Shown piece after piece: positions 42,146 to 57,615 of a stretch of DNA of 64,000 bases; the first letter of the stretch is position 1; each line of letters starts with the position of its first letter. A program made the position numbers and the translations under genes. Source of the stretch: Oculatellaceae cyanobacterium bins.114 (GTDB lineage: Bacteria > Cyanobacteriota > Cyanobacteriia > Elainellales > Elainellaceae); NCBI GenBank assembly GCA_033764315.1, contig JANRJA010000011.1, forward strand, positions 1 to 64,000, given 5' to 3'. A model generated the notes under the pieces. The model was given only the letters and a program-made list of their open reading frames with translations. It was not told the DNA's origin and did no database searches.

Positions 42146-44386
42146 TTAAGAGAGTAAATTTTTAATTTCTTTTTGAGATTGAGCCAACCGATGAGCTAAT
42201 AAGGCAATGATAAAGTCTTGGAACGTGGAAGCTGTTTTGGGATCATTTTGTTGCATCTGCTGAAACCGATCGGCAGAGAGACGATAGAGAATCGTGGACT
42301 GATCGGCGATCGCCGAGCTTTCGTGTGGGGTGCGTGTGTAAAAAGCAATCTCACCCACAATGGTGCCTGCCCCTAGCGTTTGCAAACGAACAGTTTGGTT
42401 ATTTCTCAGTTCGATCAGAGTGCTTACCTGACCCGACTCGACAAAATAGAGGGAATCAGCATCGGTGTGTTGCCGAAACAACCAGTCTCCAGTTGCCAGT
42501 TGCGATCGCTCTAAATATTTGGTGAAGGGTGCCACTTGATCAGGATCTGAGAACACCCGTTGCAGTTGCAGCGTCAACGGCATAAACCGTCCCCGTTTCC
42601 ACGTCACCGTTTCTAAAATCTGCCCCTCACACCACTCCATACCTCGATCTAAATCAGCAAACACTAGACAGATTGGGTCATCGTCCTCCAGACATCCTCC
42701 CTGCCGCAACATTTTTTCGGCACGACGGTGCAGGTGAGTAAAGACCAGTCGCAACGATTGCTTGCGTGCCAGTTGTTTGAGTTTGACAAAGCTCAACACC
42801 GCTGAGGAATCCAGACCACTCACAAGGCGAAAGTCGAGCACGACAAAATGCAAAGGTTCCAGGTCAGGCTCCATGAGTCGCTGACGAATCTGGTCTAGTA
42901 CGCGATTGGCCGTGCCAAAAAAAATAAATCCCTGCAACTCCAAAATATAAACCTGATCCCCTTTTTCACGAATCAAGTTTTCCTGGTGTTGCGGACGCAA
43001 AACGTGGCTGGTGTAGCTAGAACCAGACAACACATGTTTGGCAATTCTAGTTTGGCTGTAGTTGAGCACAAACAGAACGATCGTGGCAATCAGCCCTACC
43101 CCGACCCCTTCTAAAAAGCCCACACCTCCAATAAAAACTAAAATTAGCACGACCACGCCATAGTCAGCTCTGGGCAATGTAAACCAGGCATCATAGAGCC
43201 ATTCTTGCAAGAGGCACAGACCCAAAAATAGCAGCAATCCCCCAATGACAGGCTTGGGTAGATATGCTACAAAAAATGGCCCCAAAATTAGTGCCACCAC
43301 AAATACAAGGGCAGCCACAATTCCTGTGAGGCGGTTTTTACCACCCATTTTGTAGACCAGCACTGAGCTGCTGAGGGAATGGGTGCCAGGCAGACCCCCG
43401 CTCAACCCCGACACTAAATTAGCGATTCCCGCAGATTTCAACTCACGGTTGAGGTCAATGTCGCGGTCAGTCGCCAACTCGATGGCACTAGAATTTAACA
43501 GCAGCGAAAAACTGGTGAGCACCACAACCACCCCCATGCTGCCCAGTTGATCGGCGATCGCCCCCCCATTCATCTGCGGCAGAGCCGTGAGGGTAATGGG
43601 ACTCCACATGCCCCCTCCAGTCGTCACATTGGTGAGGAACCACCCCTTGGCAGCGGCAGTAGCGATCGACGTTTGAGTCATAGCCAACATGCCAAAAAAT
43701 AAGGCGATCGCCCCCAAACAAAGCCCTGGCAGCACCCAAAAATGAGTATAGCGACGCGAGATTAGCAGCAGGGCGATCGCAAACCCCAAACCCGACAACC
43801 AATGCAGCAGCACATCCCCAGAAAATAACGCGGATAATGGTGCCCCGTCTGCCAGCATGTGAAATGCGCCCTTAAACAGCAGCCAACCTGAGCCTGCCAA
43901 AAAACCACCCACCACGGGATAAGGAATGAAGCGAATCAGTTCGCCGACCTTGAGCCAACCCAAAACCAACAAAAACGCACCCGTCAAAATCGAGGTCAAA
44001 GCGATCGCCCCTACAACTGTGACCAAAATTTCTTCAGAGGTGGCCGTGCCCACCATCCGGTTCTCAATCGAAGCCGCAATCAGTGCCAAAATTGCAATTT
44101 GCTCTGGCTGAGGATTGGAAATCACCCCCGGATAGGAACTAGTAAAAGCAACGATCAGGCGGATGAGGACATTGCTGATGAGCACTATACCCACGCCAAG
44201 AGCAATTTGGTTGGATAATCCCCCTGAAAAAATTAATGCTGCTAACGAGATGGCTTTAAGCAGTGAAATTAACCCTGACATCAGCCCTGCACTCAGTTCT
44301 GGCAACCACTGGTTAAGCCACGTTGCTTTGACGGGTTGTTGCTCTGGTGATGAGGGGGTTGACTCAGCTGGCGATCGCGATTGCAT
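42146..44386 (-). CDS. SulP/SLC26 anion transporter with STAS and cNMP-binding domains
   Basis: RFIPYPVVGGF.AG, N.EL...G.AN, LQGFIFFGTA, LDSSA, cNMP domain VGEIAF. Confidence 0.92.
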   Translation of the reverse strand: MQSRSPAESTPSSPEQQPVKATWLNQWLPELSAGLMSGLISLLKAISLAALIFSGGLSNQIALGVGIVLISNVLIRLIVAFTSSYPGVISNPQPEQIAILALIAASIENRMVGTATSEEILVTVVGAIALTSILTGAFLLVLGWLKVGELIRFIPYPVVGGFLAGSGWLLFKGAFHMLADGAPLSALFSGDVLLHWLSGLGFAIALLLISRRYTHFWVLPGLCLGAIALFFGMLAMTQTSIATAAAKGWFLTNVTTGGGMWSPITLTALPQMNGGAIADQLGSMGVVVVLTSFSLLLNSSAIELATDRDIDLNRELKSAGIANLVSGLSGGLPGTHSLSSSVLVYKMGGKNRLTGIVAALVFVVALILGPFFVAYLPKPVIGGLLLFLGLCLLQEWLYDAWFTLPRADYGVVVLILVFIGGVGFLEGVGVGLIATIVLFVLNYSQTRIAKHVLSGSSYTSHVLRPQHQENLIREKGDQVYILELQGFIFFGTANRVLDQIRQRLMEPDLEPLHFVVLDFRLVSGLDSSAVLSFVKLKQLARKQSLRLVFTHLHRRAEKMLRQGGCLEDDDPICLVFADLDRGMEWCEGQILETVTWKRGRFMPLTLQLQRVFSDPDQVAPFTKYLERSQLATGDWLFRQHTDADSLYFVESGQVSTLIELRNNQTVRLQTLGAGTIVGEIAFYTRTPHESSAIADQSTILYRLSADRFQQMQQNDPKTASTFQDFIIALLAHRLAQSQKEIKNLLS

Positions 44387-46674: not shown

Positions 46675-46916
46675 GCGATCGCCCCCCTTGCATCTCATTT
46701 AGATATACGAGCGATAACGAGCATCTAAGCACGAAGCACTTGAAAAGAAAAGCAGTGTTAATGGTTAATCGCGCGATGAGTCAGCAATCCTCATGTTAAA
46801 AACAAGCTCGTTCGATTTTCGCGCGATCGCCACTGCACAAGTGCAAGCAAATTCTCATCATCAAAACGGCTACTTTTAGCTACTTTTAATTGTTTACTCT
46901 TTATTATTTCCCTCTC

Positions 46917-46975
46917 GGTAGTCCTCTAAAAGTAATGATTTTTGAGCAAGGATATGCTGCGTGTTTAGGACTACC
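46917..46975. mobile_element. Short MITE-like element (GGTAGTCC...GGACTACC), internally deleted relative of 54579-54659
   Basis: Terminal inverted repeat; flanked by TCCCTCTC and TTCCTCTC. Confidence 0.6.
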
Positions 46976-46983
46976 TTCCTCTC

Positions 46984-47076
46984 TATAGCAGTCCTAAATC
47001 ATTTGTGAAATTAGGAGGTTGTGAGAGTCGGACCCCTGAGGGGTGCGCCTCTCACAAACCATTTAGGATTGCTATA
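46984..47076. mobile_element. MITE-like element with 25-bp imperfect terminal inverted repeats
   Basis: TATAGCAGTCCTAAATCATTTGTGA ... TCACAAACCATTTAGGATTGCTATA; a degenerate right arm also occurs at about 201-236. Confidence 0.7.
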
Positions 47077-47251
47077 TCTCCGTCTATTTGTTTTCTATCC
47101 TTTTCCCTGATCAATCAATTTATTTTTCTCTCTATTTTTTGCTGTTCCTCTCCCCAATCGGGTGAAGCCACTATTTAGGTGCAGGGGTTAAACCAGAACA
47201 ACAATCCCGCGTGAACTGCAAACAGTACAGTAAACAGCACAGCAAACAGCA

Positions 47252-49155: not shown

Positions 49156-52100
49156 ATGGCTTTTTCTTCTGTTACCCGTGCTCTGGGGCGATCGCCCCTG
49201 ACTCATGAACTGCTGACCAAACTCCATCAGCAGCAGTTTCTCAAGCTCAATGGCATCGCTCGCATCCCCAAGGGGTTAGTCGCCTCAACCCTGGCGCAGA
49301 CCGAACAGCGCAACTTGTTGGTGATTACGGCCACGCTAGAAGAGGCAGGGCGGTGGGCCGCCCAACTAGAGGCAATGGGTTGGCATACAGTTCACTTTTA
49401 CCCAACTTCAGAGTCGTCACCCTATGAACCGTTTGACCCAGAATCTGAGATGACCTGGGGACAATTGCAAGTGCTGGCAGACTTGCAGATGGCAGAATCC
49501 GGAAAACCGATCGCTAGTGCCTCTGCTGGCTTGGCGATCGTCGCCACAGAACGCGCCCTCCAGACCCATTTGCCACCACCAGAGGTGTTTCGCCCCTATT
49601 GCCTGACGCTGCAACGAGGCATGGAGTTAAACCTGGAAGACTTTAGTCGCCAGTTAGCCAATCTGGGTTACGAGCGGGTGTCGCTCGTGGAAACAGAGGG
49701 ACAGTGGAGCCGTCGGGGAGACATTATTGATGTGTTTCCAGTGGCATCCGAGTTGCCTGTGCGCCTGGAGCTATTTGGCGATGATCTGGAGCACCTGCGT
49801 GAGTTTGATCCGGCGACTCAGCGATCGCTCGATAGCATTCAACGGTTGGTGTTGACAACGACTAACTTTGCCCCAATGGTGTTGCAGGGACTGGGTGATA
49901 CTGCTGCGGCTCGTCTAGATGCTTTGCGTCCTTATCTCTCTCCAGAAGAGTTAGAGCGGCTTGAAGCAGGGCAGATGCCAGAGGGAATGCGACGCTTTCT
50001 AGGACTCGCCTTTGAGCAACCTGCCTCGTTGTTAGATTACTTGCCCGGTAATACAGTGGTGGCGATCGACGAAGAAGAACAATGTCGCGCCCATAGCGAT
50101 CGCTGGTTTGAACACGCTGAAGACCACTGGCAAGATGTCTCCACAGGATTAGCGACTGCTTTTGCTAAAACCCATCGCCGCTTTGATGAATCTCTGATTG
50201 CAGCCGAGAGGTTTGAGCGCATTTATCTATCGGAACTGGCAGAAGAACGTGAAGGGTTGAATCTGTCTAGTCGTCCCGTACCTGCGACTCCCCATCAATT
50301 TGGCAAGTTGGCAGAGACCATTCGAGGAGAGCGCGATCGCGGTTTTTCAATTTGGTTAGTGTCAGCCCAACCTTCTCGCTCAGTGTCGCTGTTGCAGGAA
50401 CACGACTGCTCAGCTCAATTTGTACCCAATCCTCGTGACTATCCAGCAATTGAGAAATTGCAATCTCAGCGGGTTCCCGTTGCGGTCAAATATTCGGGTC
50501 TGGCAGAGTTAGAAGGGTTCATTCTGCCGACGTTTCGGTTGGTCATCGTCACCGATCGTGAGTTTTTTGGGCAACACTCCCTCGCCACCCCCAACTACGT
50601 CCGTAAGCGGCGGCGTGCGGCTTCTAAGCAAGTTGACCCCAACAAGCTGCAACCGGGAGACTATGTCGTTCACAAAAATCATGGGGTTGGGCGATTTCTC
50701 AAACTCGAAAGTCTGACCATCAACTACGAGACTCGCGAATATCTGGTGCTGCAATATGCCGATGGTTTGTTGCGTGTCGCAGCCGATCAACTCAGTTCGC
50801 TATCGCGGTTTCGGGGGGCAGGCGATGTCGCCCCTGAACTCAACAAAATGTCGAGCAAAGCCTGGGAGAAAACCAAGAGCAAAGTTCGCAAAGCGGTTAA
50901 AAAAGTTGCCTTTGACTTGTTGCAACTCTATGCCCAACGGGCACAGCAGCAGGGCTATGCCTATCCCATAGACATGCCCTGGCAAGAAGAAATGGAGGAT
51001 TCTTTTCCCTATCAACCCACAACAGATCAACTCAAGGCCGTGCAGGATGTGAAGCGAGACATGGAGAGCGATCGCCCGATGGATCGGCTCGTCTGTGGGG
51101 ATGTGGGTTTTGGCAAAACCGAAGTCGCAATTCGCGCTATTTTTAAAGCCGTCACCGCTGGTAAACAGGTGGCTTTGCTCGCCCCAACCACCATCTTGAC
51201 GCAACAACACTATCACACCTTAAAAGAAAGGTTCGCTCCCTATCCCATTCAGGTGGGTCTGTTGAACCGATTTCGCAGTGCCGAAGAACGCAAAGAGATT
51301 CAACAACGCCTGTCCACTGGCGAACTGGATGTAGTGGTGGGAACGCATCAGCTTTTAGGCAAAGGCGTTGTTTTTAAAGAACTGGGCTTGCTTGTCGTCG
51401 ATGAGGAACAGCGGTTTGGGGTGAACCAGAAAGAAAAAATTAAAACTCTGAAAACTCAAGTGGATGTCTTGACCCTGAGTGCCACCCCAATTCCTCGAAC
51501 CCTTTATATGGCGTTGTCTGGAGTGCGGGAGATGAGCCTGATCACGACACCCCCACCCTCACGTCGCCCCATCAAAACCCATTTGGCACCTTTTGACCCC
51601 GAAATGATTCGGACGGCAATTCGCCAAGAACTCGATCGGGGTGGACAGGTGTTCTATGTCGTCCCCAGAGTCGAGGGCATTGAGGAAACAGCAGGTCTGC
51701 TGCGTGAGATGATTCCCAGTGCGCGGTTGGCGATCGCCCACGGTCAAATGCCTGAAGGCGAACTCGAAGCCACCATGCTCACCTTTAGCAACGGTGAGGC
51801 AGAGATCCTTCTATGCACCACCATCATTGAGTCGGGGTTAGATATTCCCCGTGTTAACACGATCTTGATCGAAGACGCCCAAAAGTTTGGGTTGTCTCAG
51901 CTCTATCAGTTACGCGGTCGAGTCGGTCGTGCCGGAATTCAAGCCCACGCCTGGTTGTTTTATCCCCGTCAAAGCCAACTGTCAGAAGCAGCGCGGCAAC
52001 GGTTACGCGCTATTCAAGAATTTACCCAACTGGGGTCAGGCTACCAATTAGCGGTGCGTGATATGGAAATTCGGGGCGTCGGCAATTTGCTTGGAGCCGA

Positions 52101-52662
52101 ACAATCTGGACAGATGGATGCGATCGGCTTTGACCTGTACATGGAAATGCTGGAGGATGCCATCAAAGAGATTCGTGGTCAAGAAATTCCTCAAGTGGAT
52201 GACACCCAAATTGACCTCAACCTCACAGCATTCATTCCAGCCGATTACATCCCCGACCTCGACCAAAAGATGAGTGCTTATCGCGCCGTTGCCTTAGCCC
52301 AAACCAAGCAAGAGTTAACTCAAATTGCTGCCGACTGGAGCGATCGCTATGGCACAATTCCTGTGGCTGCACAACAACTGCTGCGCGTAGTGGAACTGAA
52401 ACAAGTAGCCAAACCCCTCGGCTTTAGCCGCATTAAACCCGAAAACAAACAACACATTGTGCTCGAAACCCCAATGGAGGAACCCGCCTGGAACCTGCTC
52501 AAAGAAAACCTACCTGAATATCTGCGATCGCGCTTTGTTTATACAACTGGCAAAGTAACCGTGAGGGGATTGGGCATACTCAAAGCCGAGCAGCAGTTAG
52601 ATAGCTTGATCGATTACCTCAGCCGGATGAAAGGAGTCATTCCTGAACCAGCATTGGTTTAA
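49156..52662 (+). CDS. mfd: Transcription-repair coupling factor
   Basis: UvrB-homology region, CarD/RID (GDYVVH..HGVG), [27 protein letters not shown] domain. Confidence 0.98.
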
Positions 52663-52787
52663 AAACAGCTCAATGGTTGAGGTAAGAGTCAGTCATCTTG
52701 CAACTGACACTTACGCTAGATCATTCCATCCAACGTTATAAACCGAATAGTCCTTGATTTAACTTTGCCTAAAAAACTAATACCAAT

Positions 52788-53103
52788 TTAAACGGATTTT
52801 GGGGTACTCCCTTCAAACTTTGGGTTCTTATAGCCGTAGCTACATTCAATGGGGCGGAGGCGAGTCAGAAAGCTTTCCCAACATCAGGATTTGAGCCATT
52901 GCCTTTGCCTTAAGCTTTCTGACCAAAGCTATAATTTGCCGAACCAGACTAGCTCCTACTAATGCTTGATGGAATGCTGCTTGCTTTGCAGACGTTTCGT
53001 TGTCTTTCAAATAGCTTTGGATTACCTGGCTAAGCTGCTATAGCTCAGATAGCTCCAGTGCCTGCAACGGGTTAAGAATTTGGTTGAGAAGTGCTTGTGG
53101 CAT
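52788..53103 (-). pseudogene. Degraded small gene, antitoxin-like, with an internal stop and a MITE insertion
   Basis: MPQALLNQILNPLQALELSEL*QLSQVIQSYL...AAFHQALVGASLVRQI|KNPKFE; the frame continues when 52829-52933 is collapsed to one TA; the antitoxin call is from recalled resemblance only. Confidence 0.5.
52829..52933. mobile_element. MITE-like element (TATAGC...GCTATA) inserted at TA
   Basis: Left end TATAGCCGTAG is shared with the 6171-6276 element; internal GTCAGAAAGCT/AGCTTTCTGAC inverted repeat. Confidence 0.6.
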
Positions 53104-53204
53104 TATCTGTGACCGTGAGCTAGCTTTGCTATCTGTTCTGCAAACCCTAAACCAAATACCTTACAAATAGCCTACCAGAACTGTCCTCACCGACCGTCTC
53201 AGCA

Positions 53205-53295
53205 GCCCAACGATGCCCATCACTCGTCGCAGACAACCTCGAACATCTAACCGATAATCTCTCAACGGTCGGCGTGCATGGGCATATTGTTAGGC
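53205..53295 (-). mobile_element. Integron attC-like recombination site (91 bp)
   Basis: Minus strand GCCTAAC-AAT-ATGCCCAT[G]CAC...GTGATGGGCAT-C-GTTGGGC: RYYYAAC containing the gene's stop codon, one extrahelical base, GTTRRRY core. Confidence 0.75.
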
Positions 53296-53886
53296 TTCTG
53301 TATGAGCTAATTGTTGCAGCAATCTCTCGACTTCCCTGGGATTACGAACATTCAGGAATCCTATTTCCTCAGTCCATGAATTACCTTCGCTACTCCTGTG
53401 CAGGCGAGTCGTAATCACAACATCACCCGTGTCATTTCCTCTTTCCTTGCGATACAAGTCTTTGAGTTGAGCAGGTGCATAGTTTCTAATGGTTGTAAAC
53501 CAACCACTTTCAATTGAGATTGCTCGTTTATCAGTAATTAAGTATACTGTCCGAAATGCCTTGAGCCATTCTCGGAGTGGGCTGATAAGCATCCAAAAGC
53601 CAATAAGAACGAAAGGTACTCCAAAAAGAGCAAATAAGTGCTCAAATTTTATACCTTCATGCAAAGCTGAGATCTTAAATCCCACTGCTCCATACATCCA
53701 AAAAATAGCAAAGGCAGTCCAGGGAATACCAAAAAAGAAATAGGTTAATGATTGAAGCGTGAAAAAGCGAGGGAGGGGTTGCTCAATCCATTTTATGAAT
53801 TCGCCATCTTCAAGCTCCCTACTGATTCGTCTACGGAGCTTAGCTGGGATTTGTTGCCCATTCAGCATAGTCGATTCCTCCGGCAA
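53290..53886 (-). CDS. Two-TM membrane protein with PH-like C-terminal domain (gene cassette)
   Basis: GE...W...P, GIPWTAFAIFW, LFGVPF, T.Y.IT.KR; stop codon inside the attC inverse core. Confidence 0.75.
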   Translation of the reverse strand: MPEESTMLNGQQIPAKLRRRISRELEDGEFIKWIEQPLPRFFTLQSLTYFFFGIPWTAFAIFWMYGAVGFKISALHEGIKFEHLFALFGVPFVLIGFWMLISPLREWLKAFRTVYLITDKRAISIESGWFTTIRNYAPAQLKDLYRKERGNDTGDVVITTRLHRSSEGNSWTEEIGFLNVRNPREVERLLQQLAHTEA

Positions 53887-53956
53887 TTAAGAAATCAAAT
53901 GAAGCGATGACTAGAGAACTCAGTAACTCAACTTGCAAATTAAATTCTCAGAAAAA

Positions 53957-54268
53957 AGATCCCAAACCATTAATCGTTTACAATGTCCGCAGTTCTAGGG
54001 CTACCGGATTATTCTTCATTAATACAGCAGCTTGCGTTAAGTTCTCTGCTGCTAGTTCGTCACCTTGTGCCTTGGTAATTGTGGCTCGTTTTTCCCGTTC
54101 AGCCGAAGCTTAACGCGACATCATCCGTTTCAGATCTTCAGGCAATTCAATGCCCTGCAAACGAACCGAATCAAGGTGCCATCCCCAAACCTGAATTTGC
54201 TCTTCAACCGCCTCAAGAATCTGCTCCTGAATTCGCTCACGCTGAGAAAGTAGCTCATCTACTGAGAT
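53957..54268 (-). pseudogene. SPFH/band-7 (slipin/stomatin-like) fragment with two in-frame stops
   Basis: VDELLSQRERIQ...WG..LDSVRLQ.IELPEDLKRMMSR*ASAEREKRA.I.KA.G...AA..L..AA..M..NPVALELRTL*TI; TAA at 54110 and 53978. Confidence 0.85.
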
Positions 54269-54578
54269 CGGATCTACAACAAGAACACCTCATAACCCCT
54301 ACCTAATGAAATATGCCTTTCGGTAGGGGTATTGTATAGCTTTGAAATAACCTGCATGATCTACCTCCCGTAAGCTTCTCAGCTAATCAGTAAATTGGAG
54401 GTTAAAGCTTACAATTTCATCATTTCACAGCGCACAATGCTATCACTTCTTTTGTAACTATTCTTTGACAAGTAATCAATTAATGTCTCTGTTTTTTAGC
54501 GAAACCTAGAATAATCTCTCTCCTGAAGGCAATCTGACGGCAATTTGGTATTGAATACCCACAGATAGCTTTACATTT

Positions 54579-54659
54579 GTTAGTCCTAAACAAGTAAGGG
54601 TATGTCGCGCGGAGCGTGACATACCCTTACTCAAAAATCATTATTTTTAGAGGACTACC
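54579..54659. mobile_element. MITE-like element with a long internal hairpin and target-site duplication
   Basis: Ends GTTAGTCCTAAA and TTTAGAGGACTACC; hairpin GTAAGGGTATGTC...GACATACCCTTAC; TACATTT directly on both sides. Confidence 0.75.
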
Positions 54660-54690
54660 TACATTTGCACTCCTAATCAAGGAATCAATA

Positions 54691-54776
54691 GGCTAACGTC
54701 GTAGTTGAGCGGCGATAAGCAACCTCAGCATCATAACCGATCGCCTATATTCCGCCGTTCCAACGCAGTGTTCGAC
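54691..54776 (-). mobile_element. Integron attC-like recombination site (86 bp)
   Basis: Minus strand GTCGAAC-ACTGC-GTTG[G]AACGGCG...CGCCGCTCAAC-TACGAC-GTTAGCC; central sequence related to the 53205 site. Confidence 0.72.
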
Positions 54777-54817
54777 TGCTCGCTGAAAGTTCCACCTTCA
54801 TCCATTGTATCTACGCT

Positions 54818-55276
54818 TCAAGCTGCTGGGAAATAATGCCAACATTGTAGCTCTGGTTCATATTTTGCAATTGGGTATTCACTAAGATCTTCAGGCGTTA
54901 ATAGGATTAGATGTTGAAGGGCATCAGCCAGCTGTTCCATAAACTGCCTGAGCGCATTAAAACTCTCTTCGCTCGTTATTTGCTGAGGATCTAGATCTAG
55001 CTCAATCTCTTTTTCAGCAAAGAAATGACAATTTAATTGCACTCCTCCTACCCAAATTGATAAAAGTTTTGTCTGCTCTTGTATTGAGAAGATATTAACT
55101 GCCATTGATGGAAGTAGCGTGGGTTGACCATCAACAAAATATTGGTACTGTGCCGTTTCTCTGATAACACTTAAAAACTGATTCCAATCATCTAATGTCG
55201 TCCCCTTAACATAGATATCTCGCAAAGAGCCATCCCAAATTAAGTCATTACGAACTTGATCCCATAAATTGAGCAT
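54818..55276 (-). CDS. Hypothetical protein (gene cassette)
   Basis: 152-aa ORF with DGSLRDIYV...DW and NCHFF...IE.D.DP motifs; lies between the attI-like and attC-like sites. Confidence 0.7.
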   Translation of the reverse strand: MLNLWDQVRNDLIWDGSLRDIYVKGTTLDDWNQFLSVIRETAQYQYFVDGQPTLLPSMAVNIFSIQEQTKLLSIWVGGVQLNCHFFAEKEIELDLDPQQITSEESFNALRQFMEQLADALQHLILLTPEDLSEYPIAKYEPELQCWHYFPAA

Positions 55277-55406
55277 TTACTAGTTAATCGCAAATCTAAA
55301 CTGACATTTAAACAGCAACAATACCTTGAAAACAGCTTCAAACTACTTCCTCCTAAGACTCCAACAGGCAAACTCTCAATGCATTGCCCCTACAGACAAT
55401 CTAGCG

Positions 55407-55444
55407 GTCGAACAATATTATTAGATAGATTTTTGCAGCCTAAC
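55407..55444 (-). mobile_element. attI-like (non-hairpin) cassette insertion site
   Basis: Minus strand GTTAGGC...ATCTAAT-AATATT-GTTCGAC; the core GTTCGAC is exactly complementary to the inverse core of the next attC. Confidence 0.55.
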
Positions 55445-55792
55445 ATCCCTGTGGAACCCAATTAGAATGATTTTTTCACCCCATTTGGAAAATTGAGATA
55501 TTAGGCAGATTTAGATTCTTGAATATTAACCTCTACTCAGAGAATGTACTGATTTTATTCAGCATTTTTTCGGTTCTATGAGCTTTGTCTGCATACTAAT
55601 GTATTCAGTCAAGAGTTGATGCTATTTAACACGATAATGCTTTCAACTTCTTCTCCATTCTCGCCATAAAGTTCATCCAAACTAAGCATAAGAAGAACGC
55701 TGTTACCCAGCTCATTGTGTAGCTCTTCAAGCAACCAAGAAGTGTTGAATCTTGCCTGGTTTCTCTCTTGATTCTTCTTTTTTCTATCTTGC

Positions 55793-57277
55793 CTAAAACT
55801 GTCTTGTCCAATCGCTAAACCAGCGTTCTACAACGACTTTAGTTTGAGTAAAGAACTCGATCGCATGTGCGCCTTGTCCATGCAGATCGCCAAAGAAGCT
55901 GTCTTTCCAACCACTAAAGGGAAAGAATGCCATTGGGGCGGCAACGCCAATGTTGATGCCGATGTTACCTGCCTCAGCTTCATAGCGAAACTTGCGGGCT
56001 GCGGCTCCACTACTAGTAAACAGACACGCCATATTACCCCACACGCCTCGATTGACCAGAGCGATCGCCTCATCAATCGTGTTGACATGCATCAACCCCA
56101 ACACCGGACCAAAAATCTCGGTACGAGCAATCTCACTATCGGGGGGCACATCTTGCAACAGCGTGGGACGCACGAAACTGCCCTGTTCGTAGCCAGAAAT
56201 TTTAGGTTGGCGACCGTCAACTAAGGGTTTAGCTCCCTGATCGATGCCCCGTTGAATCAATCCTTCAATGCGATCGCGACTAGGATGATTGATCACGGGT
56301 CCCATTTGCACACCGTCCTCCAACCCAAACCCCACAACTCTCGCTTTGGCTGCTTCGGCGATCGCTTCTGTAAAGGGTTCCTTGGCTTGTCCCACCGTCA
56401 CCATTAACGACGCCGCCAAACATCGCTGTCCAGCGCAACCAAAGGCACTATCCATCGTGATGCGAGTAGTGGTTTCCAGATCAGCATCCGGTAGCACGAT
56501 AATCGGATTTTTGGCTCCTCCCTGACACTGCACCCGCTTGCCATTGGCGGCTGCACGACTGTAAACGTAGCGAGCAACGGGGCTAGAGCCGACAAAGCTG
56601 ATCGCGCGAATCACCGGATGATCGAGAATGGCGTCTACGGCTTCTTTAGATCCGTTCACCAAGTTCACCACTCCGGCAGGCAATCCCGTTTGCTCTAGCA
56701 GTTGAAACACTTTGTACATGGTCAGGGGCACTTTTTCAGAAGGCTTGACAATATAGGTGTTGCCACATGCGATCGCGTAGGGCAAAAACCAGAAGGGAAT
56801 CATACCCGGAAAGTTGAAAGGGGCGATCGCGGCAGCGACCCCTAACGGTTGCCGAATCATAATTTCGTCGATGCCCCTGGCAATATCTTCGGAATTATAG
56901 CCCTGCATCAAAATCGGAATGCCACACGCCACTTCCACATTTTCGATGCCTCGTTGCATCTCCGCTTTCGCCTCAGCAAAAGTTTTGCCACACTCCAATG
57001 TGATTGTTCGTGCCAGATCATCCAGGTTGGTTTCGAGCAACCCCTTCAACTTAAACAGATATTGCACTCGGTCTGTAGGAGGGACTCGCCGCCAAGCTTT
57101 AAAGGCGATCGCCGCTGCCTGTGCAGCCTGATCAATTTCACTGGTAGGAGAAATAGGAACTTGGCTCAACACCTCATTAGTCGCTGGATTGATCACATCT
57201 AGATAGTCAGTTGCGATCGAGGTTTGCCATTGTCCGTTGATGTAATTCTGTAGCCGTTCTGGTTGTAAACCGCCCAT
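55793..57277 (-). CDS. mmsA: CoA-acylating (methyl)malonate-semialdehyde dehydrogenase
   Basis: [48 protein letters not shown]. Confidence 0.92.
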
Positions 57278-57615
57278 GATCACCCTTTGAAATAAAGCCC
57301 ATCCGTTTATTGTGAGGCAGTTGGGCTTAAAAATCGCCATAAGTTAATCGTCAATCTATCAAGGCTGAGCGCGGGCTATATCAGAAATGCTGAGTGCCGA
57401 GGGGGTTTAGTTCTCCCTTGACGCCTTTACCCCGACCCGAAAAACGTCATGAAATGGTCAAAAGTGTGCAATCACTTTTTTGCAACAAAATATTACAGAG
57501 GAGGGATATTAAGATAAATCCCCTAGATCAACATCAGAGCTAGACAGAAAAGGGATCTCGGGATTTGAGTTTGCAAAGACAGCACCTAAGGAATCGGCAA
57601 AAATCCATGGGTTCG

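Follow-up and report, generated by a model that had tools for sequence, protein, structure and literature searches.

The presence of two related palindromes, each just 3' of a minus-strand open reading frame (ORF), in a stretch of cyanobacterial DNA with no integrase gene beside them poses the question of whether such a locus is truly part of an integron and, if it is, how it came to lack its integrase. The stretch, referred to here as the window, comprises 64,000 nucleotides of Oculatellaceae cyanobacterium bins.114 (assembly GCA_033764315.1, contig JANRJA010000011.1, positions 1 to 64,000), and all positions given without a contig label follow its numbering. It belongs to the contig labelled C81 of the study genome, G000, an assembly of 6.64 Mb in 251 contigs that is 90.7% complete, and the array lies on its minus strand; other C labels are likewise contigs of G000, L labels are loci in the comparison, G001 is a genome of the same genus and G011 a further relative. 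A first-pass annotation of the window had described an integron-like cassette array with an attI-like site and two attC sites, and had suggested that cassettes are captured there with the help, in trans, of an integrase whose gene lies elsewhere. Our analysis places the locus among the attC-site clusters without an integrase (CALIN) in the terms of IntegronFinder, here with attI retained, and the account that we favour, though with real reservation, is that of a decaying relic: an orphan chromosomal integron platform that would have kept attI and a short array, lost the integrase gene intI, and still hold mobilisable cassettes.

Identification of the attC sites

The two palindromes were found by direct reading 3' of co-oriented minus-strand ORFs, where the first-pass annotation had placed them.

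53203..53300, minus strand: attC of cassette 2 (site 1, the first palindrome); palindrome 53295->53205, 91 nt, GCCTAAC...GTTGGGC; covariance model 62.4 bits, E 9.8e-15; nhmmer E 2.9e-15
54689..54781, minus strand: attC of cassette 1 (site 2, the second palindrome); inverse core GTCGAAC 54776->54770, core GTTAGCC 54697->54691; covariance model 44.7 bits, E 8.8e-10; nhmmer E 9e-10

The boxes of site 1, GCCTAAC and GTTGGGC, are a perfect fit to RYYYAAC/GTTRRRY, and the TAA within its GCCTAAC is, as had been noticed, the stop codon of a 198-amino-acid (aa) ORF (53886->53290). As single-stranded DNA this site folds into a single long imperfect hairpin (-18.8 kcal/mol, z -2.4, equalled by 5 of 200 shuffles), and its close relatives at C212:21915-22019 and C136:452-557 show compensatory changes in the stem. 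Site 2 is degenerate and is placed 3' of a 152-aa ORF (55276->54818). The AAC and GTT boxes were as described, whereas the single extrahelical base that had been reported is an approximation: in the family consensus two positions of the 5' arm are left unpaired, with no unpaired position facing them, an asymmetry that may serve in the choice of strand, and site 1 carries extra inserted bases.

A family search seeded with site 1 and two partial BLAST relatives, run as three nhmmer rounds over the whole of G000, returned 53 attC-like sites at E<=0.01, both window sites included. Several form arrays on a single strand (six sites on C199, five on C183, four on C155 and three each on C55, C212 and C99), and single sites are dispersed over many further contigs. 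In the alignment conserved ..CTAACAA.. and ..CGTTAG.. ends flank an inner stem with letters that change in concert. We measured this covariation on the 51 sites outside the window, aligned with MAFFT and given a 23-pair attC-type stem supplied by hand (RNAalifold on the same alignment recovered the inner 11 pairs only). Pairing held in 80.6% of cells against 65.3 +/- 0.9% in shuffled alignments and double changes occurred in 202 cells against 80 +/- 9, neither value being reached in any of 500 shuffles; double changes were present in 20 of the 23 pairs, the covariation score was 0.422 against 0.165 (0/500), and sliding the partners by 1-3 columns lowered pairing to 27-40%.

A covariance model built from these 51 sites and scanned over the whole window with filters off found the two attC sites only, each aligned full length, the next best match having an E of 0.83. 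Such a match had been set as a test of the original proposal, and the E values of 9.8e-15 and 8.8e-10 come from a model specific to this genome. The proposal also expected more copies of the palindromes, placed consistently 3' of ORFs. At 30 of the 53 sites an ORF of 50 aa or more, in the same orientation as the site, ends between -80 and +25 nt from the inverse core, against 11 of 53 in an antisense (mirror) control, and the CTAAC box of six sites includes the stop codon. Judged by their sequence, both palindromes of the window are genuine attC sites.

A strict scan for RYYYAAC...GTTRRRY gave 72 strand-wise matches, palindromes being counted on both strands, with little clustering, and was set aside as too strict for this family. 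Weak matches of the covariance model at 46859-46949 (E 0.83) and 46981-47082 (E 3.4) were rejected as copies of another small palindromic repeat. This repeat family, which causes weak false matches to the attC model, has ends TAGTCCTAAAC ... TTTTAGAGGACTAC around a variable hairpin and occurs in cassette 2, at window positions 46859-47082 and at C17:31274-31346.

Two further observations concern the family as a whole. Many cassettes of G000 share a leader of about 35 nt after the core box, roughly GTTrGGCTGC ... GGT.GGGAC, for example at 53204-53170. At three attC sites an element of the IS110 family (Transposase_20, DEDD_Tnp_IS110) ends at one identical position, the core box being replaced:

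C136:452-1891, C251:1-239 and C99:1857-2038 (loci L083-L085): IS110-family insertions at attC

The element is presumably similar to insertion sequences of the IS1111-attC group, which target attC; the likeness lies in the fixed position inside attC, and the copies in G000 are outside the window.

An attI region without its integrase gene

On the upstream side of the first cassette we found a second kind of site.

55413..55630, minus strand: attI/promoter region of type B, without integrase gene, homologous to the intI-proximal region of G001 locus L019

The crossover point G|TT lies at 55412-55410 on the minus strand, and the region holds direct repeats of an ATTAGA..GATTTTT motif together with a GTTAGGC box (55443->55437). 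It forms no hairpin (-1.3 kcal/mol, z +1.5), and 55420-55603 is 89% identical to L019 6033-6218, which in G001 separates the first cassette from an intact intI (start 6246) whose type-B product is 70.8% identical to the integrase protein of G000 described below. The earlier description of a hairpin-free, attI-like site was therefore borne out, and because the stretch is homologous to the DNA between first cassette and intact intI in a congener we regard 55413 to about 55630, on this homology, as a true attI/promoter region from which intI is missing. Binding and recombination by an integrase at this site remain putative. The homology ends about where intI would start, and is followed by 160 bp of unique DNA and then by the stop codon of the dehydrogenase gene; the flank 55560-55800 is unique in G000, and tblastn found no IntI remnant in 55300-56000 (best E 0.09).

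Further copies of the attI-like stretch, also foreseen, were recovered at full length on C239 and C190 of G000, and six are present in G001 and three in G011. Of the nine copies from G001 and G011, eight have attC sites on the side and strand that would be expected, and the ninth ends at a contig edge. When the copies are aligned the attI side is conserved and the cassette side unrelated, with the boundary exactly at ..AACAAT / GTT... The first cassette begins at this boundary: its start, GTTCGACCGCT at 55412, is complementary at 10/11 positions to its own inverse core AGCAGTCGAAC, as had been claimed and as is expected from a circular cassette opened at G|TT.

Integrases and platform types

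No integron integrase was found on C81 with either TIGR02249 or tblastn, in agreement with the first-pass annotation, which had also predicted that one would be encoded elsewhere in the genome. We located an intact 325-aa IntI at C16:150-1127, without stops, which scores 481.9 bits against the TIGR02249 cut-off of 265 (match C16:183-1124) and covers positions 1-314 of the 315 in the profile; it contains an insertion motif, presumably that of integron integrases. Bases C16:1-141 match the reverse complement of C183:1-141 with 100% identity, and C183 carries five co-oriented attC sites. Because these contig ends share 141 identical bases, we read C16 and C183 as a single complete integron that the assembler divided. 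The G000 assembly contains no second full integrase, only a 38-residue stub on C155.

The attI regions of G000 fall into two types. Type A, that of the resident integron on C183/C16, occurs also on C112, C155 and C44 with intI stubs of at most 110 bp, and type B occurs in the window and on C239 and C190, so that at least 7 platforms bear attI and one of them has an intact intI. The subtypes of attC are common to type-A and type-B arrays. In G001 an intact type B is accompanied by a fragment of type A and by a third type (63% identity), which brings the genus to at least three integrase/attI types, and integrases above the family cut-off were found in 17 of the 31 genomes searched, G000 included.

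IntegronFinder defines a CALIN by at least two attC sites within 4 kb and no integrase nearby, and the window has two sites 1.49 kb apart on a contig without IntI, which makes the locus a CALIN with its attI retained. A complete integron has intI adjoining attI and the cassettes; an aldehyde dehydrogenase gene is found in that place here.

A shared deletion in related platforms

Six integrase-less type-B platforms from G001 and G011 were compared with L019.

G001 L018, L020-L022 and G011 L024, L025: integrase-less platforms with a shared junction

The junction left by the deletion is identical in all six: the loss begins near codon 14 of intI and extends to roughly 50 bp beyond its stop, at a short AACA microhomology, and because the junction is identical these copies go back to a single ancestor with the deletion. 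All six retain a conserved segment downstream, with a 66-aa ORF. The ORF, which has no Pfam family, is 94-100% identical among copies; the intact integrases at L019 and L080 also have it on their downstream side, and it lies next to the fragment at L081. It is absent from the G000 genome. No pair among the cassette-side flanks of 12 platforms shares a stretch of at least 120 bp. Since there was one deleted ancestor and yet no shared cassette-side flank, these differences imply turnover of cassettes, or relocation of the platform, after the loss of intI.

When G001 L021 is aligned with L019, a small hairpin can be seen some 130 bp downstream of the intI stop, its arms reading CCTAAC ... GTTAGG, and this raises the question of whether intI is itself flanked by sequences resembling recombination sites.

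Cassette content and signs of decay

The array consists of two full cassettes and a third that is cut off.

54697..55412, minus strand: cassette 1; 152-aa ORF 55276->54818 and its own attC
53211..54696, minus strand: cassette 2 (about 1.49 kb); small repeat, SPFH/Band 7 pseudogene fragment, 198-aa ORF and attC
52804..53210, minus strand: cassette 3 remnant; 5' part of a two-gene cassette, pseudogene, with the remainder and the attC missing

The 152-aa protein of cassette 1 has no Pfam or NCBIfam family. Its nearest relatives are in Leptolyngbya-like cyanobacteria, with 62% identity in a Leptolyngbya, and homologues of 35-40% identity occur in Vibrio, Aliivibrio, Photobacterium and Pseudoalteromonas. 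The structure is predicted confidently, with a predicted local distance difference test score (pLDDT) of 95.5, and its fold is matched best by chain B (155 residues) of the CdiA-CT complex 6d7y (Z 8.7, root-mean-square deviation 3.8 A, 132 residues aligned), a chain that we take to be the immunity protein of that toxin complex; immunity proteins of the Imm52 type match the model less well (Z 5.5-5.7). The fold suggests that cassette 1 may carry an orphan immunity gene, and we offer this as a lead and not as an assignment.

Cassette 2 retains an intact ORF (53886->53290) of 198 aa, or 192 aa from the first ATG, which encodes a membrane protein with a weak match to bPH_2 below the cut-off and with 167 homologues, most of them in filamentous cyanobacteria. 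The SPFH/Band 7 fragment upstream of it (54289->53981) is the 3' part of a gene, preceded by stops and broken by an in-frame TAA (54112-54110); it matches Band_7 PF01145 (E 3.3e-7) at profile positions 107-156 of 176 only. A small palindromic repeat with copies elsewhere occupies 54581-54662. The covariance model, with filters off, found no further attC in the cassette 2 interval at E<=10.

What remains of cassette 3 includes 282 nt that are 80% identical to C155:42480-42761, the start of an intact cassette between attC sites at 42392-42502 and 43313-43422. Its frame contains an in-frame TAG and is then split by a 110-bp dispersed repeat at 52828-52939, copies of which, 95-97% identical, are found on 7 other contigs (C100, C198, C53, C189, C30, C17, C123) and once in G001. 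Past the repeat, homology to the C155 cassette resumes for 27 nt and then ends, so the second gene and the attC of cassette 3 are gone. The 154-aa product of that second gene on C155 was considered as PIN-like and this was dropped, as Pfam, NCBIfam and PDB sequence searches gave no match. Altogether the window array contains two pseudogene fragments, two insertions of small repeats and a cut-off last cassette.

Chromosomal context

The array is flanked by two genes.

49156..52662, plus strand: mfd, the transcription-repair coupling factor gene, on the left flank and convergent with the array; TRCF, CarD_TRCF_RID, UvrB_inter and helicase domains
55793..57340, minus strand: aldehyde dehydrogenase gene, labelled mmsA, on the right flank and on the side expected for intI; Aldedh PF00171, E 6.6e-138

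The array has a G+C content of 41.3%, against 52.3% in mfd and 51.2% in the dehydrogenase gene, and it lies within a gap free of HIP1 (52524-56061, 3537 bp) that is the largest in a window with 122 HIP1 copies in its 64 kb. The AT-rich patch without HIP1 that had been pointed out is thus real, and in composition the array is foreign relative to its flanks. A scan of 52600-55850 for promoter-like and terminator-like sites was uninformative, with six of the former against 6.4 expected and three of the latter against 2.9 expected.

A comparison of the interval between mfd and the dehydrogenase gene across relatives had been set as a test, and the interval is not invariant: in all 20 relatives in which a DNA search found both genes they are non-adjacent, lying on separate contigs or far apart (0.57 Mb in G003). 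As the two genes are not neighbours in relatives, we regard the rearrangement as derived in G000. DNA similarity downstream of mfd is detectable in G001 only, where the arrangement is mfd|Y and X|dehydrogenase; G000 has mfd|array|dehydrogenase on C81 and X|2 kb|Y on C188. The neighbours at G001 loci L027 and L028 are thereby joined in G000 at C188:10775-23314 (L082), with 2 kb of other genes between them at C188:13220-15240. The array sits at a synteny breakpoint, and the pattern relative to G001 is what a reciprocal exchange would leave. No attC was found in the reciprocal junction C188:13220-15240 (best E 0.72; best in the whole locus 0.49), and as this joint has none there is no sign that the rearrangement was mediated by an integrase.

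Origin of the window locus

We infer the recombination events at this locus, both past and present, from its anatomy. Circular cassettes would have entered at the G|TT of 55412 when an integrase recombined their attC with attI, leaving chimeric sites, and cassette 1 retains at its 5' end the match to its own inverse core. The intI gene would later have been lost from the platform while the attI/promoter region and the array remained, and slow decay would have produced the pseudogene fragments, the repeat insertions and the cut-off third cassette. Because the attC family is common to all the arrays, the cassettes are probably still mobilisable by the C16 IntI, and from the sequence of the sites their excision or exchange by this enzyme is still probable; a new capture at the window attI would need the C16 IntI to recognise a foreign attI type.

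A number of observations weigh against a decaying relic. The intactness and conservation of both cassette ORFs suit a maintained array equally well, and the joints of attI with the dehydrogenase gene and of the array with mfd are known from one draft assembly. The C16 IntI adjoins type-A attI, which differs from the type B of the window, and no type-B integrase was found in the G000 assembly (90.7% complete, 251 contigs), leaving service in trans a plausible conjecture. Folded by itself, site 2 does not surpass its shuffles (z +0.58, with 142 of 200 equalling it), and the GTCGAAC of its inverse core deviates from RYYYAAC. Finally, the covariance model is specific to this genome, was first seeded from one window site that was later removed, and is not IntegronFinder's own attC model.

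Some of the same facts would suit an active satellite dock, that is, an integrase-less attI kept by selection for capture and expression of cassettes and served in trans by an integrase elsewhere, a possibility that we entertain tentatively. At least seven attI-bearing platforms share a genome with one intact intI, all six of the integrase-less copies compared in G001 and G011 trace to one deletion, the 12 cassette-side flanks point to turnover or relocation after that loss, and in the window both the junction at 55412 and the two cassette ORFs are intact. Recombination is, however, not directly evidenced, the window copy has no intI stub and its cargo is decaying, the resident IntI belongs to the other attI type, and the differences between arrays might also stem from homologous recombination among attC repeats, or from differential loss. 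Of the capture site proposed by the first-pass annotation the anatomy stood, with two attC sites, an attI region, no intI on the contig and an intact IntI elsewhere; service in trans at the window attI is conjectural, the enzyme being of another attI type and the array in decay. A wider version, to which we would give a minority chance, is that integrase-less attI platforms are a propagated working class within a distributed integron, in which one or two integrases serve many docks in trans and the window is one such dock. One deleted derivative, comprising attI, the intI stub and downstream DNA, would have spread to many sites on the chromosome in at least two genera, its copies gaining their own cassettes, and rearrangements would arise at the docks.

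The three other explanations that we considered carry, even jointly, about as much weight as a long shot. Insertion of the cassettes by a remote integrase at a secondary, non-att site, so that there was never a platform here, is among the routes to CALIN that have been published (PMC4889954; bioRxiv 10.1101/2022.09.11.507474); it is very improbable at this locus, where the first cassette is bordered by about 190 bp with homology to the intI-proximal attI region of a complete integron, the junction point is that of 8 other copies, and no attC was found to the right of the 55413-55630 element at E<=10. Equally hard to credit is an assembly artefact, with the contig chimeric at a repeat and the array really beside an integrase gene. 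Integron repeats do break this assembly, with C16, C183, C112, C239, C136 and C99 starting or ending in them, and mfd and the dehydrogenase gene are neighbours in none of the 20 relatives; but the three type-B attI copies of G000 share only near-identical stretches of 24-30 nt, too diverged for k-mer collapse, the flank at 55560-55800 occurs once in the genome, and the reciprocal junction on C188, with its unrelated sequence, fits a real exchange. The palindromes could in principle be a generic dispersed repeat of cyanobacteria, such as a miniature inverted-repeat transposable element or a repetitive extragenic palindrome, with no tie to integrons, as two other small dispersed repeats lie in the region and single sites are scattered over many contigs. 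This we consider the least credible of all, given arrays physically joined to an intact intI, co-oriented sites within the array, ORFs that end at the inverse core, AAC/GTT boxes with a covarying stem of variable sequence, and an IS110-family element that interrupts three sites at the same position.

Comparison with known integrons

Orphan arrays are a known kind of locus, and the first-pass annotation overrated the novelty of this one. The IntegronFinder paper (PMC4889954) treats CALIN as a defined and frequent class, describes multiple integrons per genome as common, counts Cyanobacteria among the phyla that carry integrons and gives the loss of intI from one of several integrons as a scenario. 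The window agrees with the CALIN described there in its two co-oriented attC sites 1.49 kb apart, with no intI nearby and an integrase elsewhere in the genome. It differs in keeping a recognisable attI/promoter region, which would normally go unseen since IntegronFinder seeks the attI of classes 1-3 only. A covariance model of attC specific to Cyanobacteria exists (Ghaly et al., PMC8352920), and overlap with the present family, from the same phylum and of the same kind of site, is probable. Like the sedentary chromosomal integrons of Vibrio and Xanthomonas, those of G000 are chromosomal, with an attC family homogeneous within the genome and cassettes mostly of unknown function, and the cassette 1 protein has homologues in Vibrio, Aliivibrio and Photobacterium; in contrast, the arrays of G000 are short (2-6 sites per contig) and there are many platforms in place of one large array.

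In the literature searched we found no description of attI sites, or of multiple integrase-less platforms, in cyanobacteria, though the supplements of the IntegronFinder papers may list such genomes. What is less usual here is that attI is kept and recognisable, and that the lineage has many integrase-less attI platforms, each with different cassettes. The window locus adds one well-documented CALIN to a phylum known to carry integrons, and, with attI still in place and intI lost, it allows a CALIN's origin to be read directly. With many integrase-less copies of attI and few integrases, this lineage also makes the use of several attI sites in trans, and across types, a testable question.

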